A stretch of DNA of 64,000 nucleotides, from the IMG/VR virus record IMGVR_UViG_3300009008_000008, positions 62,001 to 126,000 of that record, one strand, 5' to 3'. Source of the stretch: an uncultured virus (IMG/VR IMGVR_UViG_3300009008_000008). Taxonomy: Duplodnaviria; Heunggongvirae; Uroviricota; Caudoviricetes. This document shows positions 12,185 to 20,212 of the stretch, piece after piece; position 1 is the stretch's first letter, and every line of letters starts with the position of its first letter. The notes beneath the pieces were generated by a model. The model was not told where the DNA came from, ran no database searches, and worked only from the letters and a program-made list of their open reading frames with translations. The position numbers and the translations under genes were made by a program.

Positions 12185-12964
12185 TCACTTTTCGTCAAAT
12201 TCGATGCTAACGGTAGCCCCTGTTTCATGGTCCCGGACCTTCATCGTGTCCCGTCTGCTGCGGGAACCGCGTTTCTTTTTTGGCTTTTTCCCTTGAGCCA
12301 AAGATTCCAAGTCTGAGGTACAAGCATCAATGGTGGGTGCTTCGTAACTATCCAGGTCTGACTTCTTTCGGATGACGGGCATACGCTTTTTGGTCAAAAG
12401 GTGGGAACGTAGATCTTTGGGCGTTTGGATTTTCCCTTCTTCCGTCAAACGTTCCGATAGGGCTGTAAACCGACTCTTGGACAGGACTGAGGCAATCGGA
12501 AGGGTTAAGAAAACCAACTTTTTGCGGTAACGTTTGGAACGGAGTGAGCTGGCAACATGGAGGTACTTGAGGTCCTTGGTGGCCCCAATGACACGCCCCT
12601 GAAACCAACAGTCGAGGTAGGATATACGGGGAGCCGACAAGTTCATAAAAATGGGCTGGCCAAATTTGTAACCCGTCTTTTGGACGGTGGCAGCGTACTT
12701 GAACAAGTAGGCCAATATGCGGAGTTGGCTGGGTTTGAGGTCCTTGGCGATTATCGCGATTTGCTCGATCGCGTCTTCCTGGACCGTCACCAGCTTGTAG
12801 GTATCTGGGGTAAAATCGTCACAGGCAGAAGCAAAGGACTGAACCCCGAGGTCCTTACACTTTTTATCATAAACAGCGGGCCCTCTCTTATGATGGAGGC
12901 ATTCCCCGCACTTCATACCCAAACTTAGCTTCCCTGACTTGGAAGGCGTCCCTTTCTTCAACAT
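12185..12964 (-). CDS. Hypothetical basic protein with Cys cluster
   Basis: CGECLH...C...ACDDF N-terminal zinc-binding-like motif. Confidence 0.6.
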   Translation of the reverse strand: MLKKGTPSKSGKLSLGMKCGECLHHKRGPAVYDKKCKDLGVQSFASACDDFTPDTYKLVTVQEDAIEQIAIIAKDLKPSQLRILAYLFKYAATVQKTGYKFGQPIFMNLSAPRISYLDCWFQGRVIGATKDLKYLHVASSLRSKRYRKKLVFLTLPIASVLSKSRFTALSERLTEEGKIQTPKDLRSHLLTKKRMPVIRKKSDLDSYEAPTIDACTSDLESLAQGKKPKKKRGSRSRRDTMKVRDHETGATVSIEFDEK

Positions 12965-13019
12965 AAGGATTCCCCGGTTGGTAGGTGAGCGTTATACGCT
13001 CACGGTTGGTAGTTGGTAT

Positions 13020-13514
13020 CTAGTGCCCTATGTGCCTCATATATACCACTTTAATTCCCTCTTTCACCACTTGGTCCTGCGTTAACCCTAGACCCTTCGC
13101 TGATAGTTTTAACATACGATGGGTTGCAGCGTCAAGCGTTGTCATGTATTTCACGGGTCGGTGGTCGGAACCCTTTGATATTTCGTTCGCTTTGGAGATG
13201 ACAGAAGCCAGATAAACCGCTTGGTCTACCTGGCCGGAACCCTTCCATTTGGAACAGAGTTGGGTGATATACTGGGTACCATACTTGACATACTGGGGAA
13301 TGCGTATCTGGTGGGTGTTATAATGACAAATCCCGCACAGGGTTACAGTAGGACCGGTTTCCCCTCCGCAATGCCGAGGTACCACATGGTGTTCTTCCAA
13401 GCCATCTTTGTCTTGGCAAATCCAACAGTGGTCCAACTTCAATGTACGCTTAATTTCCAAACGTTGTGCCCTTGTTAATACTTTAACTTGATGGAGCCGT
13501 GCGGGTTTGCCCAT
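13020..13514 (-). CDS. HNH endonuclease with C-terminal ribbon-helix-helix-like domain
   Basis: CWIC...LEEHHVVPRHCGG...LCGICH, then KYMTTLDAATHRMLKLSAKGLGLTQDQVVKEGI. Start moved to 13514 because a sigma70 promoter lies at 13533-13561. Confidence 0.75.
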   Translation of the reverse strand: MGKPARLHQVKVLTRAQRLEIKRTLKLDHCWICQDKDGLEEHHVVPRHCGGETGPTVTLCGICHYNTHQIRIPQYVKYGTQYITQLCSKWKGSGQVDQAVYLASVISKANEISKGSDHRPVKYMTTLDAATHRMLKLSAKGLGLTQDQVVKEGIKVVYMRHIGH

Positions 13515-13532
13515 ACCCAACACTACGACACC

Positions 13533-13561
13533 ATTGTAACATATACCAACAGAAGAGTCAA
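13533..13561 (-). promoter_or_regulatory. Sigma70-type promoter
   Basis: TTGACT-17 nt-TACAAT. Confidence 0.7.
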
Positions 13562-13601
13562 GTAAAATTTCATGACTCGAAAAACCCAAGGATTTCAATG
13601 T

Positions 13602-13740
13602 CTTGCCATAGAAGAGCCCAGATGGAGGCAGGCAACGTTGGGCATGGACGTTAGGCGGCACTCGGAGACCGGGGAGATCACACTATACACCTGGGCCCTT
13701 CTATGGCAAGGCAGGCCCACCTACTTGGGACCCTGCCCTC
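13602..13740 (-). ncRNA. Candidate structured RNA: 23-bp stem enclosing small hairpins
   Basis: Arms 13602-13624 and 13688-13710 pair without a break on the minus strand (two G-U); lies just downstream of TGTAAATA at 13747. Confidence 0.5.
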
Positions 13741-13746
13741 ATGGTT

Positions 13747-13754
13747 TATTTACA
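13747..13754 (-). promoter_or_regulatory. TGTAAATA putative phage-specific promoter
   Basis: Exact intergenic motif copy. Confidence 0.6.
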
Positions 13755-13781
13755 AGAAATTATTATAAACTGAGCCAAAAA

Positions 13782-13869
13782 TGGAGCCAGGAACAGGATT
13801 CGAACCTGCGTTGGGTTTTCGCCGTCGGCTTACAAAGCCGCTCCTCTCGGCCGCTGGAGGGACCCTGGC
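13782..13869 (-). tRNA. tRNA-Thr(UGU) with a long variable region
   Basis: GCCAGGG/UCCUGGC acceptor, CCUC/GAGG D-stem, loop UUUGUAA, 15-nt variable region, GCAGG-UUCGAAU-CCUGU T-arm, U-CCA end. Confidence 0.75.
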
Positions 13870-13892
13870 AAATCAAGATTAGACTAGAGATA

Positions 13893-13966
13893 TGGACCTG
13901 CGTTTGGGTAGAACCAACAACCTAAGGCTTAACAGGCCCTCACTTTACCAACCAAACTACTGTGGA
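13893..13966 (-). pseudogene. Degenerate tRNA-Asn(GUU)
   Basis: Intact anticodon arm AGGGC-CUGUUAA-GCCUU and CCA end; the T-loop is aberrant and the acceptor stem does not pair. Confidence 0.65.
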
Positions 13967-13972
13967 TTAAGA

Positions 13973-14080
13973 TGGCACGTAGTAGGAATCGAACCTACGA
14001 TTCTCGCTTAAACGGTTGATCAGTCCGCTATCGGCGAGCACAGACTCTGCCTGCGCGTTTACCACTCCGCCATACGTGCC
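13973..14080 (-). ncRNA. tRNA-like RNA lacking an anticodon loop, with an extended variable arm
   Basis: GGCACGUA/UACGUGCC 8-bp terminal stem, Leu-type D arm, CAGGC-AGA-GUCUG, ~40-nt arm closed by CUCGC/GCGAG, canonical GUAGG-UUCGAUU-CCUAC T-arm. Confidence 0.75.
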
Positions 14081-14090
14081 ACAAAGAAAA

Positions 14091-14343
14091 TATGGTGTGC
14101 TATTACGCCAAAGAGGAGTTCACCCTTACCATCTCTGGGGTGGCTTACTACTTCACCAAGTGGCGCCCGTCGCCTATCCCTCATAGCAGGTGGTCCTGCA
14201 GAGCTCTTTATTTGGATGCCGCCACCCAAACGTTAGCCTAGAGGTTTCCCTGGTTCATGCCCTTGCAATCCAGGTACGTACTACAACTAACGGCCTTTGC
14301 CTCACTCTTTAAAGGATGGCTGCTTCTAAGCCAACCTCCCATA
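14091..14343 (-). ncRNA. ncRNA mimicking the 23S rRNA uL11-binding domain (H43/H44) with a ~190-nt structured insert
   Basis: GGAGGUUGGCUUAGAAGCAGCCAUCCUUUAAAGAGUG (14339-14303) and GCGUAAUAGC (14108-14099), closed by UAUGG/CCAUA. Confidence 0.85.
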
Positions 14344-14356
14344 CCTTATAGTATAT

Positions 14357-14728
14357 TCAATACCACGTTCGATGTTGTTCAAATACCCATTCACGACCAT
14401 CGTCAGCTTCACCGATACTCCACTTAATGTCCTCCGGAATCTCTATGACCTTCAGGTCAGGGGCCAAATCCTGGTGTTGGTTGAATGCTTCCAAGAGAGC
14501 AGGGTCATCACGCGGTATATCAAACACTGGGCAAAATCGTTCACCATCCTTGGTGTAGTTAAAGGATGCATGTGGTTCGTCTTCATGGGCCTGGTCTTTA
14601 TAAGATTGGACATACACTCCGTCCAGTTCCCACTGGAGATCAACACCAGTAGCCTGTGCCCAGGCCATCACAATTTTGTGTGGAAGGGAAAACCCACCGA
14701 TTTCTTTGTTAATGAGTATATGCCTCAC
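14357..14728 (-). CDS. Conserved phage hypothetical protein
   Basis: INKEIGGFSL...PRDDPALL...LKVIEIPED...EWVFEQHRTW pattern, common in phages. Confidence 0.7.
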   Translation of the reverse strand: MRHILINKEIGGFSLPHKIVMAWAQATGVDLQWELDGVYVQSYKDQAHEDEPHASFNYTKDGERFCPVFDIPRDDPALLEAFNQHQDLAPDLKVIEIPEDIKWSIGEADDGREWVFEQHRTWY

Positions 14729-14755
14729 GAGTAACTACCTTAAGTACTGGTTGAT

Positions 14756-14832
14756 TGGCTGGCCCTCCTGGATTCGAACCAGGGATACACAGAATCAAAA
14801 TCTGTTGCCTTACCAAACTTGGCTAAGGGCCA
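14756..14832 (-). tRNA. tRNA-Gln(UUG)
   Basis: UGGCCCU/AGGGCCA acceptor, ACAGA-UUUUGAU-UCUGU, CCUGG-UUCGAAU-CCAGG, G-CCA. Confidence 0.95.
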
Positions 14833-14837
14833 ATCGA

Positions 14838-15004
14838 ATACCACAGGCTGGGCGTTACTCCAGCTACACGGTTTCTCACCAGGAATATAACCGGGATCAC
14901 CTGGTAATTCGCACGAGCTACACTGGCATCAGGCCCTTATCCCTTGCCATTTGGGCAATATCCCTCCTGTCACCAGGAGGCCCCCGTTTACCGCGGGGCG
15001 GTAC
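14838..15004 (-). ncRNA. Candidate multi-stem ncRNA abutting tRNA-Gln
   Basis: Terminal stem GUACCGC/GUGGUAU with five internal hairpins; no convincing ORF. Confidence 0.6.
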
Positions 15005-15011
15005 AACGCAA

Positions 15012-15260
15012 TTATGCCACTCCTCTATATATTATTATTATATAGAGATGTGTCCTGTTTCCCCGCCCGATCAGGTGACGGGCCTGACGCTCGGTGCCGA
15101 CACGCCAGTCTTGTTCTTGAGCGAGTTTGGCAAAGGCAAGGGCCAATAGGTTGCGATCATAATAGGCGGCCTCCAATGCTTGCCCCTCCGCTCGCAACTT
15201 AACCACTTCTGCCTTTCGCAGTTCCTCAGCATGAGCGCCTGATAATTGGACATTACACAT
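15012..15260 (-). CDS. Small hypothetical protein, possibly 3'-truncated
   Basis: Protein-like up to YYDRNLLALAFAKLAQEQDWRVG, then runs into an AT-rich hairpin. Confidence 0.4.
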   Translation of the reverse strand: MCNVQLSGAHAEELRKAEVVKLRAEGQALEAAYYDRNLLALAFAKLAQEQDWRVGTERQARHLIGRGNRTHLYIIIIYRGVA

Positions 15261-15269
15261 GGTCAGTTC

Positions 15270-15458
15270 CTAATCAACAATAGTAAAATCAAAGGCCCCA
15301 TAATCCAAGATCACGCTTTTACCTGGAGGAACATGTGTCAGAACAAACTGTTCAAAGGTAGGGTCGTTTCCTTTTAAACGGAGAAACCGTTCATCCTTTG
15401 GCATTCCTTCCCACTGCTCCTTAACCATCTTTTCCAGTTCGTCATAGGTTAACTTCAT
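15270..15458 (-). CDS. Small hypothetical protein
   Basis: 62-aa ORF in the run of minus-strand genes. Confidence 0.5.
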   Translation of the reverse strand: MKLTYDELEKMVKEQWEGMPKDERFLRLKGNDPTFEQFVLTHVPPGKSVILDYGAFDFTIVD

Positions 15459-15469
15459 GATAGTGACCC

Positions 15470-15634
15470 TAAGTTACCACCCCAAGTATTTTTGATCACA
15501 TGGCCACGCCACATGTGAAGACCCTCCTCCGTGGCGTGGCACCTTTTGCAAATACAGGCCCCTGCATAAAACCTATATATCTCGTTGTCTTCCTTGGGCT
15601 GGTGGCAACAAACACAATTCAGAGTTTCTTCCAT
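15470..15634 (-). CDS. Small C4 zinc-finger-like protein (54 aa)
   Basis: Translated by hand: MEETLNCVCCHQPK...ACICKRCH; below the ORF-track length cutoff. Confidence 0.4.
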
Positions 15635-15653
15635 GGAACCATGCCTTTAAGTT

Positions 15654-15729
15654 TGGTGGAGACGGACGGAATCGAACCGCCGACATCCTGCTTGCAAAGC
15701 AGGCGCTCTCCCAACTGAGCTACGCCCCC
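15654..15729 (-). tRNA. tRNA-Ala(UGC)
   Basis: Canonical cloverleaf with G3:U70, loop UUUGCAA, A-CCA. Confidence 0.95.
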
Positions 15730-15740
15730 ACGAGATAAAA

Positions 15741-16280
15741 TTACTTCTTTTGGAAAACCAACATCAAAGCCCCAAGGATCGATGCAAGACCAGCAAAAAG
15801 TTGACCGGGCAAAGGGTTAGTGTTGTTCGGAGTCTGCGCCAGCTGGACCGCCGCCACCCGAAGCTGGTTCAGAAACATTGGGTTGGTCAAATCCATGGCC
15901 CCGCTTTGCTGAGGAATCTGGGCAGGAGCAGAGGGACCACCCCCAACCACAGGAAACACCTGCTTCTCCTCAGGGTTCACAGCAACCTTCTGATCAACCA
16001 GGAACCCCTGTCCCGCTGTCAGGTGCTGCTTGAGCTGGTCAATGGTCCACAACATTCCTGCGTGGTCGGGTGGGGCCGGAGGGGGGCGGCGGAGGTTACG
16101 TGGTTTGAACCCTTGTTCCAAGGCAGACATGTACAGGACCTCAACACCATTCTGGCGGGTGTACAGGCTGACGTTGAACACTGTGTTATCCGCTACTCCA
16201 TAGATACGTACCTGTTGGCCTGGGGTAAATTTACGAAGCTGCTCCAAATCAGCTGGTTTGTGGACTTCGATTACACTCAT
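15741..16280 (-). CDS. Hypothetical protein with hydrophobic C-terminus
   Basis: AAGGAG RBS; 179 aa; C-terminal LFAGLASILGALMLVF could be a membrane anchor. Confidence 0.65.
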   Translation of the reverse strand: MSVIEVHKPADLEQLRKFTPGQQVRIYGVADNTVFNVSLYTRQNGVEVLYMSALEQGFKPRNLRRPPPAPPDHAGMLWTIDQLKQHLTAGQGFLVDQKVAVNPEEKQVFPVVGGGPSAPAQIPQQSGAMDLTNPMFLNQLRVAAVQLAQTPNNTNPLPGQLFAGLASILGALMLVFQKK

Positions 16281-16359
16281 CTCGGCTCCTTTGTTCTACT
16301 GTTCCCACTGAACATGATCTAACCTCTGATAACCCAAAACCACCTCGGCTCTCAATAAT

Positions 16360-16447
16360 TGGTAGGGCTGGAGGGAGTTGAACCCACGGTAGGTCGCCCT
16401 ACGTCGGTTTTCAAGACCGGTACCTTTAACCACTCGGCCACCCTTCC
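16360..16447 (-). pseudogene. Chimeric tRNA-Ser(UGA) with a foreign 3' end
   Basis: Ser-type 5' body and variable arm, but 5' GGAAGGG cannot pair with 3' CAGCCCU-A-CCA. Confidence 0.7.
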
Positions 16448-16453
16448 ACAAAC

Positions 16454-16708
16454 CTACAAGGATTCCTCTAGGCAGGAGAACTCTGTGTGCCCGCAGTTTG
16501 GACATACGTCATCCTCCAGCTCTTCTGTTGTAAACTCTTGATTACACTGCAGGCACTCACAAAGCTTACCGTAAGTGGTAGTTTCCCCTTCTGGTTCCGC
16601 GGTCCAATGGAGTTCATCGTTCCCACAGTTAGGGCAAGCATCACTGTATAATTTATCAGGTGGACCTTCCCAACAACAATCCGGACACTCACAAACTCGA
16701 TCACTCAT
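16454..16708 (-). CDS. Double zinc-ribbon protein
   Basis: Two CxxC...CPNCG units; acidic. Confidence 0.65.
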   Translation of the reverse strand: MSDRVCECPDCCWEGPPDKLYSDACPNCGNDELHWTAEPEGETTTYGKLCECLQCNQEFTTEELEDDVCPNCGHTEFSCLEESL

Positions 16709-17003
16709 CCCACACTCCAATTATTCCTTGGTAGGCATCTGGTGGTGGTCCATGGCCAGGTCGTGGTCTCCAACGTAACGATGCCTTAATTTGGCCCGAC
16801 TTTTCAGAACACCAGTAAGCTTCAACGGTACCACTTACGTTCAAAGGTGAGCCTATGCCCACCCTGTATACTGGTGTTGTGGTTGTTAACGAGAACTTTG
16901 CGAGGACTTCGTTGTTATGGAGGACCTCCACCTGACAGGTTTTGGACTCCAGATAACGTTCCCAACGAACCTTGATAGGACCTAAGATTATCATTTCGCT
17001 CAT
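16701..17003 (-). CDS. Hypothetical protein
   Basis: GAGGAG RBS; 100 aa. Confidence 0.5.
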   Translation of the reverse strand: MSEMIILGPIKVRWERYLESKTCQVEVLHNNEVLAKFSLTTTTPVYRVGIGSPLNVSGTVEAYWCSEKSGQIKASLRWRPRPGHGPPPDAYQGIIGVWDE

Positions 17004-17099
17004 TGCGGCTCCTCAGAGGGCCACCCAAGCACTTTAGGTCCTTGAGAGTCCAAAGATATGTCCAAAGATAAAAACCCGACAGAAGTCCTCTGAGGGCGT

Positions 17100-17483
17100 T
17101 TATGAGGTAAAGGGTATTGACGGGGCTTTAGGTCCCAGTTTGAAGAACTGCTGGTTCCCGTCTTTGTAATCCTCTGTCAACCATCCCTTATCCAACCACT
17201 TGCGGATGGTCTTCCACTGAGCACCTTTTGACCTATACACCACCCGTTCACCCTCCCGTACTTCATTTGTGACCTTACCTTTATCATCGGTTGAGGTGTA
17301 AGGTACCTTCTTGACCACACGTTCGATGACCACAGAGACACGGCCGCGAGCGGCAGCCCGCAACACTCGCAACTGACGACGATCAGCGATACCAGGAGGG
17401 AGTGGTTGTTTCTTATTTAACCTTCCGTCAATGCCGGAGGGTTGACGGGAAGTCTTCTCTTGTTTCGGTTTCTTGGCACTCAT
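17100..17483 (-). CDS. Basic hypothetical protein
   Basis: Start likely MSAKKPK; Lys/Arg-rich. Confidence 0.6.
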   Translation of the reverse strand: MSAKKPKQEKTSRQPSGIDGRLNKKQPLPPGIADRRQLRVLRAAARGRVSVVIERVVKKVPYTSTDDKGKVTNEVREGERVVYRSKGAQWKTIRKWLDKGWLTEDYKDGNQQFFKLGPKAPSIPFTS

Positions 17484-18502: not shown

Positions 18503-18746
18503 GATTTTCCTCCTGATTGATTGTCGGGGTAGTACCCCTTGTTGGTTGGTGTTCTTGTGTTAATATCTCTTTACAGTCTGCCAAACAGTGGGAACAAATG
18601 CATACACGTTCTTCCTGTTTGGCGCCTTCTATGACCTGCATAGGGCCTAAAGCCACTTCCTTTGGAGGTCGTAACTCCATGCAAAAATGGCAACGAAAGG
18701 CACTCCATTTTAGTAACGACTTTTCTCCAGGAAGGATCTCTGTCAT
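18420..18746 (-). CDS. ClpX-type C4 zinc-finger protein
   Basis: RCHFC...VCICSHCLADCKEIL matches the ClpX N-terminal zinc-finger pattern. Confidence 0.55.
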   Translation of the reverse strand: MTEILPGEKSLLKWSAFRCHFCMELRPPKEVALGPMQVIEGAKQEERVCICSHCLADCKEILTQEHQPTRGTTPTINQEENHGNEDQQESERGTGPAPTGSPEGTPSS

Positions 18747-20212
18747 TACACCGTCACCTTGGCAAACTCGCGAAGGTCCTCCACCATTTTTGGGCGTGGG
18801 TCTTTAAGGTGGTATCGCAGATCATCCCTCTGTTTATTCAAATTATTAATGCGGGCCTCAAGGTCCTCGATATTCCAGCGGTGTAACTGCAGGATCTTAA
18901 ACCCCAATATCTGGTCAGCCTCTTCCAAGGTAATACCCTCGAGGTGCTTAACCAAGTAATTGGCAGGCTCCTCATCATCCAAGGACTTCAATACCGTGTC
19001 TTTATTCAGGGACGCCAGCAGACGTAGTTCCAAGTCCCGTATCTTTTTATCCAGCACTCGTATTAGGTACCGCAAGCTACGACGTTCCTGTTTGAGCCTC
19101 CAAGCCACCCAGTTTTTCAGTAACTTGGGGATCGAGGTCCTACGGAACCGGGCCCTCATCTTCCCAGTACTGGCATCGAATGACCTACTGACAATGTTGA
19201 CGCGGAAGTCTAGTTTGGAATCAAAGTAGGACACCACCTCTTGGGATAACGTAACAAAGCGTGAAGCCGCGGTCTTCTTCAAGAATACCGTATACCTTGG
19301 ACCCGTCTCTAGGGAAGTCTCATCGTCTACAGAGGCAACGTAGGACAGCTCTCGTACTTTGGCAACCACTTTTCCGATATTCAGATTGGGTGCGAATCCG
19401 GTAAACGTGAGGGAAAGCTGGTGTTGGTTTACGTGATGGGGCGAGCTGAACCACACCCCACCTGTGCCCTGTTCGTAGAAAGCCCTTAGGTCTGCCAGAC
19501 CTTCTTTGTCCAGGATGGCTTCCCCACCATATTTATACCGGAATTTCAGATGTTTAACACACTCGGCAACACCCACTGGTTCATCGTCCAATAAACGTTG
19601 GACCAATGTGATGAGACCCTTGAGCTCATAACTTGGTATGTGGGCGGTACCGCCCATTGCGATCCCGAAAGTACCATTCACCAAGATATTGGGGACTAGG
19701 GAGGGCAGCACTACAGGCTCCACCGCCTTTCCATCATACGTGGGCATCTCCTCAAGGGTAGGTACGTAGTCAGGGTGGAAGAGACCCTTGTCTGCATATT
19801 TGGTGAGGCGACCCTCTGTGTACCGCATAGCAGCGGGCCCGTCTGTTAGCGAACCCCAGTTACCTTTACCATCGATGAGGGGCGTACTGAGGTTTGCCAT
19901 GGTGACAGCGGCCCCATAGATAGCACTGTCACCATGTGGGTGGAACTTACCCATTGTATCACCAACAATCCTGGCGGCTTTCAAAACCCCGGCGTTATGG
20001 GTAAGCCCTAACTTGTGCATCGCCCAAAGGATGCGACGTTGGACTGGCTTGAGTCCATCTCGGAAGTCGGCAATTGCCCGGTCCTCCAAGGTGTACTTTC
20101 CATAGTCCATCATCGCCCCTCGGGCGTACTCCAATAAACCTACCTCTGGAACATGGGCAACACTCGCAGGGGCTTGGAGCGCGGGGTTAACTTTTCGTGT
20201 TCGTCGGCTCAT
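18746..20212 (-). CDS. Type IIA topoisomerase subunit A (GyrA/ParC-like, no C-terminal pinwheel domain)
   Basis: DGLKPVQRRILWAM, FHPHGDSAIY, GNWGS, PAAMRYTE (catalytic Tyr), PNILVNGTFGIAMG. Confidence 0.95.
   Translation of the reverse strand: MSRRTRKVNPALQAPASVAHVPEVGLLEYARGAMMDYGKYTLEDRAIADFRDGLKPVQRRILWAMHKLGLTHNAGVLKAARIVGDTMGKFHPHGDSAIYGAAVTMANLSTPLIDGKGNWGSLTDGPAAMRYTEGRLTKYADKGLFHPDYVPTLEEMPTYDGKAVEPVVLPSLVPNILVNGTFGIAMGGTAHIPSYELKGLITLVQRLLDDEPVGVAECVKHLKFRYKYGGEAILDKEGLADLRAFYEQGTGGVWFSSPHHVNQHQLSLTFTGFAPNLNIGKVVAKVRELSYVASVDDETSLETGPRYTVFLKKTAASRFVTLSQEVVSYFDSKLDFRVNIVSRSFDASTGKMRARFRRTSIPKLLKNWVAWRLKQERRSLRYLIRVLDKKIRDLELRLLASLNKDTVLKSLDDEEPANYLVKHLEGITLEEADQILGFKILQLHRWNIEDLEARINNLNKQRDDLRYHLKDPRPKMVEDLREFAKVTV

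Follow-up and report, generated by a model that had tools for sequence, protein, structure and literature searches.

The GTPase-associated center (GAC) of bacterial 23S rRNA consists of the tip of H42 together with H43 and H44 (E. coli positions 1051-1108). On the ribosome, its A1067 and A1095 loops meet factors and tRNA, and factors depend for their binding on the sarcin-ricin loop and the L10-L12 stalk as well. The protein that binds this domain, uL11, is needed for RelA-dependent stringent signaling and for normal RF1 activity. According to PMC2175356, the C-terminal domain of uL11 hydrogen-bonds the U1060-A1088 pair and otherwise binds the 1067 stem in its minor groove through backbone contacts. 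By the same account, E. coli L11 can also assemble on the yeast site, so that the fold matters and the exact sequence does not. Off the ribosome, rRNA sites for proteins are imitated by the leaders of r-protein operons, such as the L10 leader (RF00557) and the L1 site in the L11 operon mRNA, which are cellular, cis-acting, and loose in their mimicry. Small RNAs encoded within a phage tRNA cluster, on the tRNA strand, are exemplified by rnaC and rnaD (species 1 and 2) of T4, which are stable RNAs without an assigned function.

The locus described here combines features of both. It is a 261-nt structured non-coding RNA located among the tRNA genes of a marine phage, at 14087-14347 on the minus strand of the window (that is, the whole 64,000-nt stretch of DNA that was analyzed). 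The 5' and 3' ends of the RNA rebuild the GAC, forming H43, H44, and a closing stem, and are split by a 193-nt insert. Reading from the 5' end, the first strand of the closing stem (14339-14347) replaces the tip of H42, ends at the base aligned with G1055, and pairs with the last strand (14087-14095). Next comes the copy of H43 (1057-1081; 14313-14337), in which the match to E. coli 23S places A1067 at 14327. The 5' side of the H44 three-way junction occupies 14304-14312 and comprises the junction 1082-1086 followed by G1087, A1088, G, and U. The insert (14111-14303) is an extra domain branching off H44 on a basal helix (14300-14303 paired with 14113-14116), and it carries a conserved module near its 3' end (14122-14144). 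The top of H44 with its A1095 loop (U-G-G1091-C1092 ... G1099-C1100-A1101-C1102-A1103) then follows at 14096-14110, with A1095 at 14104. The limits of the whole RNA are those of the closing stem when extended to nine pairs, two of them G-U; they agree with a covariance model match at 14085-14349 and with stem counts over the anchored family members described below. The source is a 128-kb IMG/VR record rated about 50% complete. Its locus is present in four DNA runs of one marine study (labelled marine metagenome), and no RNA run is listed as containing it.

How faithful is the copy? Numbering was taken from the E. coli 23S gene with the offset that puts the well-known A1067 and A1095 in the two loops. 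The 5' block is identical to E. coli 23S at 34 of 36 bases (positions 1052-1088), with 94% identity and an E value of 3e-6 in a BLAST comparison with E. coli 23S (against 28 Gb). In the 3' block the sole difference, judged by eye, is an A for U1101. The original prediction, made from the letters alone, had quoted both blocks on the minus strand correctly, had cut the sequence between them at 194 nt, and had assigned them to the uL11/thiostrepton domain, all of which stands.

The same prediction saw a stand-alone, dedicated mimic and no captured rRNA operon, and the surroundings agree. At gathering score, tRNAs are all that Rfam 15 finds in the whole window, with no LSU, SSU, or intron, so no rRNA gene adjoins the element. 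Between 13600 and 16800, no LSU, SSU, or intron match appears even at E values up to 10, and neither full-length 23S nor flanking rRNA domains accompany the element as they would a bacterial LSU rRNA gene (RF02541). The insert is no more similar to the remainder of E. coli 23S than shuffled sequence is (Smith-Waterman, 25; shuffled mean, 25.6). Two other origins for it were considered and rejected. The insert module is not a copy of another 23S region: eight modules score 18 to 24, and the insert's own 25 falls below its shuffled mean. Nor is the insert a group I intron (RF00028) within the remains of an rRNA exon, which would call for a recognizable catalytic core and about 200 nt or more, since there is no match at E values up to 10 and relatives exist with inserts of only 3 to 50 nt.

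Is the RNA peculiar to this phage? Distinct relatives number more than 130 across viral contigs, cultured phages, and a few bacterial assemblies. Among GenBank phages, blastn finds unannotated homologues in Pseudomonas phages Astolliot, UNO-G1W1, pf16, and Milchi, in Aeromonas phage 4_4572, and in the Xanthomonas jumbo phage XacN1. A second query returned jumbo phages of Cronobacter, Pectobacterium, Serratia, Erwinia, Yersinia, Xanthomonas, and Vibrio, along with records that clearly stem from 23S contamination. In IMG/VR, 58 contigs contain a 20-mer of the 5' block. For a 17-mer of the 3' block there are at least 120 IMG/VR matches; among 80 of these loci taken with full flanks, a recognizable 5' block lies upstream at 73 and is missing at 7. 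The 17-mer mostly occurs by chance in genome contigs of bacteria and archaea, with an upstream 5' block at 8 of 80 full-flank loci. Seven of these 8 are metagenome-assembled genomes (Ruminococcus, Oscillospiraceae, a Clostridia bacterium, Acidimicrobiales, Neisseriaceae, Pseudobdellovibrionaceae, and Anaerolineales) and the eighth is a Clostridiaceae strain record; all are probably prophages or mis-binned phage DNA. The hosts of the carrier phages include Pseudomonadota, Bacillota, Actinomycetota, and others. Anchoring on both blocks gave 163 elements, 133 of them distinct, a lower bound in that the counts rest on two sequence patterns and miss diverged members.

The window's RNA is a regular member of this family. 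A covariance model (R1) built from 30 other members, with the window left out, finds a single match in it, on the minus strand, at 93.7 bits (E value of 2.6e-28) over the full length of the model. The RNA has the 5' block with H43 and the 1067 loop, the 3' block with the 1095 loop, a stem that closes on itself, and the family signatures A1101 and GAGU/UUUG. The original prediction recognized no named RNA family, and indeed Rfam 15 has none that covers the element, either in the whole window at gathering score or within 13600-16800 at E values up to 10. No description of the family was found in openly accessible full texts. The RNA is real and widespread, and its family is apparently undescribed. 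In the records of UNO-G1W1 (locus L002, 1572-1679) and Milchi (hit H7), a hypothetical protein is annotated over the RNA, on the opposite strand in UNO-G1W1; these are probably spurious gene calls. Several phage records that leave the region unannotated or call a spurious protein there would be corrected.

Folding energy says little about the element, as the whole-RNA fold is ordinary (z = -0.95) and thermodynamics alone is uninformative. Comparison of relatives says far more. The original prediction had proposed conserved pairing among homologues as its own test, and the 133 distinct relatives supply it. When 30 short members are aligned with MAFFT, pairing holds in 92.0% of cells, compared with 68.3% in shuffles, and none of 500 shuffles reaches the observed value. 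Compensatory changes are found in 16 of 25 pairs, and when the partners are slid out of register, pairing falls to 35-52%. Covariation extends to the closing stem and H43, to the 1082-1086 pair, and to the insert at its base. All nine positions of the closing stem, which had been predicted to pair despite its difference from rRNA, do so in 98 to 133 of the 133 members, and the seven outer positions show all four Watson-Crick types. Within the rRNA-like part, the 133 anchored members, about nine of which are off register in the counts for 1079-1090 owing to a second insert, have GC 50, UA 33, AU 31, CG 5, and UG 5 at 1058-1080; AU 116 and CG 10 at 1057-1081; and UA 86, CG 26, and AU 10 at 1082-1086. 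That second insert lies in the 3' strand of H43, after A1077, at the U1078 bulge site (L070, L100, L115, L141, and about five more).

Other positions hardly change at all. Every one of the 133 members has U1060, and 124 have A1088, the latter count being subject to the same nine rows. G1071 is kept in 132 and C1072 in 133, G1091-C1100 pairs in every member, and 1092-1099 is CG in 131 and UA in 2; presumably G1071, C1072, G1091-C1100, and the 1082-1086 pair are the bases that hold the tertiary fold. Position 1061, where purines stabilize the isolated domain, is a purine in 54 of 133. Position 1101 is A in 129 members and G in 4, and it pairs with the U before GGC in 130. In the 1095 loop, G1093 (133), U1094 (132), A1095 (129), and A1098 (133) are nearly invariant, with 1096 being A in 104 and G in 28 and 1097 being U in 66, C in 53, and A in 13. 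Each scan fixes its own search block, and loop conservation was therefore read from the set found by the other: A1067 is present in 68 of the 74 members not selected on the 5' block and A1095 in 40 of the 44 not selected on the 3' block. Loop positions 1068, 1070, 1096, and 1097 are variable. Thus defined, the family is a self-closed unit with the secondary structure and the tertiary-contact bases of the uL11-binding domain of 23S rRNA.

What of the insert? In all but a few members, an extra helix leaves H44 after G1087-A1088, G, and U and returns through UUU-G into G1091-C1092. GAGU is present in 62 of the 74 members found through the 3' block, and each of the three U's of UUUG in 130 to 132 of 133. 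At positions k = 3, 4, 5, and 6, the basal helix pairs in 128, 122, 117, and 90 of the 133 members, respectively, with all four pair types. Insert length varies from 3 nt (L043) through about 25 nt (L072) to about 360 nt. L043 (435-488), which has only its 3 nt between the anchored blocks, carries G at 1101; L072, L098, and L256 are further near-insertless members, some of which have just a hairpin of about 25 nt. The core can therefore do without the extra domain.

The insert of the window belongs to a class of 32 of the 133 members, recognized by pattern match, that share a terminal module 12 to 14 nt before H44 (13 nt in 29 of the 32). The module comprises a bulge of two bases (CA, but UA in two members), CC/GG pairs, and a hairpin of 3 bp, together with a UAA bulge and a pair designated Nb:Nb'. 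This last pair forms in 32 of 32 members (GC 18, UA 12, AU 1, and CG 1) and is also predicted by RNAalifold. The loop of the hairpin is GAAA, GAGA, or UAAN across the class, and in the window the hairpin is CCA-GAGA-UGG, a tetraloop. A GNRA-type loop suggests, from its sequence, a tertiary dock. An insert so equipped would most likely stabilize the fold off the ribosome or carry a second, lineage-specific partner.

Five helices had been predicted in this insert from the single sequence. All five exist as complementary segments and four are in the minimum-free-energy fold, from which GGCG/CGCC is absent. Only one of them, the UUUGG/CCAAA hairpin, has comparative support, in the form of look-alikes with altered stems in L032, L091, and L118 (judged by eye); the others fall in a region where there are no alignable relatives, the only close copies, L033 and L046, being identical to the window. 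The prediction that a pairing of AAAGAG-U-GAG with CUC-CUCUUU might switch the mimic off is not supported. Only four pairs (AAAG:YUUU) are generally possible, and a fifth, to A1088, is possible in 32 of 133 members. In the proposed off register, the base assigned to G1087 covaries instead with the 5' base three after A1088 (GC 67, AU 40, and UA 15), which supports a constitutive basal helix of the insert and not a switch.

The genomic setting is that of a tRNA array. Flanked by an ORF of unassigned function (phrog_16527) and by an atypical tRNA that starts 7 nt past the stem, the RNA is encoded on the tRNA strand. Among 45 distinct loci from the first scan, ARAGORN calls a tRNA within 450 nt at 28 and none at 17; the tRNA is always on the same strand and often no more than 10 nt away. 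Four of the five cultured phages share this arrangement. Given a gene in tRNA arrays and on the tRNA strand, the RNA is probably released by tRNA processing. A scan of 13000-17200 for promoters and terminators gave chance levels (4 versus 4.2 and 4 versus 5.1). XacN1 is arranged differently (L005, 831-1481 and 1740-1780): the RNA comes just behind the gene for a 2'-5' RNA ligase, at a distance from tRNAs, and is followed by a G+C-rich, terminator-like hairpin and a U run (by eye), which suggests that it has a transcript of its own.

Several neighbors of the RNA in the window merit description. The tRNA-like gene downstream of it (13974-14079, minus strand) is 106 nt long, scores 43.7 bits against the Rfam tRNA model, and has 49 nt around the anticodon arm where the model has 15. 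It has no ARAGORN call and a fold z score of -2.9, and it may be an intron-bearing or odd type II tRNA. Two more tRNA-like sequences missed by ARAGORN are on the same strand, one a partial match below the gathering score (13902-13959; 24.7 bits) and the other with three mismatched acceptor pairs (16363-16444; 33.7 bits). Pieces of topoisomerase II (phrog_17701; PF00521/phrog_551) flank the tRNA region, as in large T4-like phages, at 12185-12964 and 18746-20212, both on the minus strand. No translation or stringent-response function was found among the neighboring proteins in the window, and no r-protein gene is nearby, the neighbors being tRNAs and phage genes without assigned function. A uL11 gene was looked for and not found in five complete carrier phages and in the window's record (14 of 14 control genomes were positive), so any uL11 that the RNA bound would be the host's.

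Why would so many phages carry a free-standing copy of this domain? The reading that best accounts for the evidence, although we would stop short of calling it probable, is that the RNA acts as an off-ribosome sponge for host uL11. This reading draws on features of the sequence and ranks ahead of a decoy for agents attacking the same site. The uL11-specific determinants U1060 and A1088 are kept, and the free covariation at 1057-1081 and 1058-1080 fits a protein that grips the stem through its backbone. The bases that contact factors and antibiotics, A1067 and A1095, are slightly relaxed. The stem in the place of H42 varies in sequence and length and so provides no uL10 site. Taken with the missing phage uL11 gene, these features favor binding of host uL11 off the ribosome. 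The RNA would bind the host's own uL11 away from the ribosome, and given the roles of that protein in RelA signaling and RF1 activity, a highly expressed sponge could blunt the host's starvation alarm or retune translation during infection.

There are points against a sponge. (i) Any ligand that recognizes the folded domain, and not uL11 alone, would fit the conservation. (ii) A1067 and A1095 are not needed by the uL11 C-terminal domain, and yet they are kept in more than 90% of members, which hints that the loop face also matters. (iii) The RNA must compete with tens of thousands of ribosomes. (iv) To our knowledge, neither the invariant A1101 nor the GAGU...UUUG junction has a role in uL11 binding. 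A bolder version of the sponge proposal is doubtful as it stands: in many large phages, across many bacterial phyla, the copy would strip or intercept host uL11, leaving uL11-poor ribosomes that lack the RelA alarm and terminate differently at UAG and UGA, with the extra domain serving as a folding clamp by which the RNA outcompetes the ribosome.

Could the RNA instead protect the ribosome? As a decoy or competitive substrate it would draw off agents that attack this site, either H43/H44 toxins of the host or a competitor or thiopeptides, and thereby spare the ribosomes that the phage needs. We consider this unlikely, though it has specific arguments in its favor. Some phage tRNAs counter tRNA-cutting defenses, and this RNA sits among phage tRNA genes. 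G1093, U1094, A1095, and A1098 are nearly invariant in the mimic, and a toxin for exactly this site exists, as Tre23 ADP-ribosylates bases 1095-1098 in helix 44 of 23S rRNA, the helix that thiopeptides bind together with H43 (PMC8661411). However, there is free variation at 1096 and 1097, which fall within the stretch mapped for Tre23, and a catalytic enzyme is hard to titrate with substrate. We know of no anti-phage system aimed at the H43/H44 site. Thiopeptide binding, moreover, also requires uL11 (PMC2175356).

A further alternative, with a smaller chance of being right, is that the partner is something else that meets the domain, such as a translational GTPase, RelA, or the tRNA elbow, or that the mimic is only a handle bringing the insert to uL11 or to the surroundings of the ribosome. 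The retention of both loops speaks for another partner, and phages also encode L7/L12 domains (10.1101/174177), but the RNA lacks the sarcin-ricin loop and the L10-L12 stalk that such factors use. As for a handle, the inserts do carry lineage-specific conserved modules, but an insert that shrinks to 3 nt in L043 and to about 25 nt in L072 cannot be essential cargo. To a functionless relic, be it a piece of captured rRNA or what is left of exons around a degenerate intron, we give almost no weight despite the high identity to rRNA and the fixed insertion site, since 133 diverged copies keep pairing by compensatory changes even in a closing stem foreign to rRNA, neither adjoining rRNA nor any Rfam intron or LSU match (E values up to 10) is present, and insert length is so uneven; the covariation excludes a relic without function, and the divergence of the copies excludes recent duplication from one source.

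If the bolder version of the sponge reading is true, it would give the first known case of a viral RNA that works by mimicking part of an rRNA. If the RNA binds either uL11 or some other reader of the site, it would represent a new viral route to the takeover of translation, by RNA imitation and not by a protein factor. The idea is directly testable, as the RNA occurs in culturable phages, for example, the Pseudomonas putida phage pf16. The family is also a natural source of self-folding variants for an RNA-protein model system that has been much studied.

Overall, how does the RNA compare with the known systems? Like the r-protein operon leaders, it presents the binding site of a ribosomal protein off the ribosome, but it is viral and a near-exact copy with no r-protein gene nearby, and no Rfam leader family matches between 13600 and 16800 at E values up to 10. 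It resembles rnaC and rnaD of T4 in size and setting; these were considered as relatives and rejected, as R1 reaches no more than 7.7 bits anywhere in the T4 cluster (filters off) and neither block is found in their sequences. The loops that it imitates are the loops attacked at the Tre23/thiopeptide target site (PMC8661411), except that Tre23 and thiopeptides act on the ribosome itself and the phage RNA is a putative target. The closest counterpart is the GAC of bacterial 23S rRNA, with which it shares the same helices, the two loops, and the tertiary-contact bases. The rRNA domain, however, sits inside a 2.9-kb rRNA, whereas the phage RNA stands alone, its closing stem is free in sequence, position 1101, a U in E. 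coli, is A or G, and an extra helix leaves H44 at the GAGU...UUUG junction. It is, in addition, encoded by phages, among their tRNA genes.
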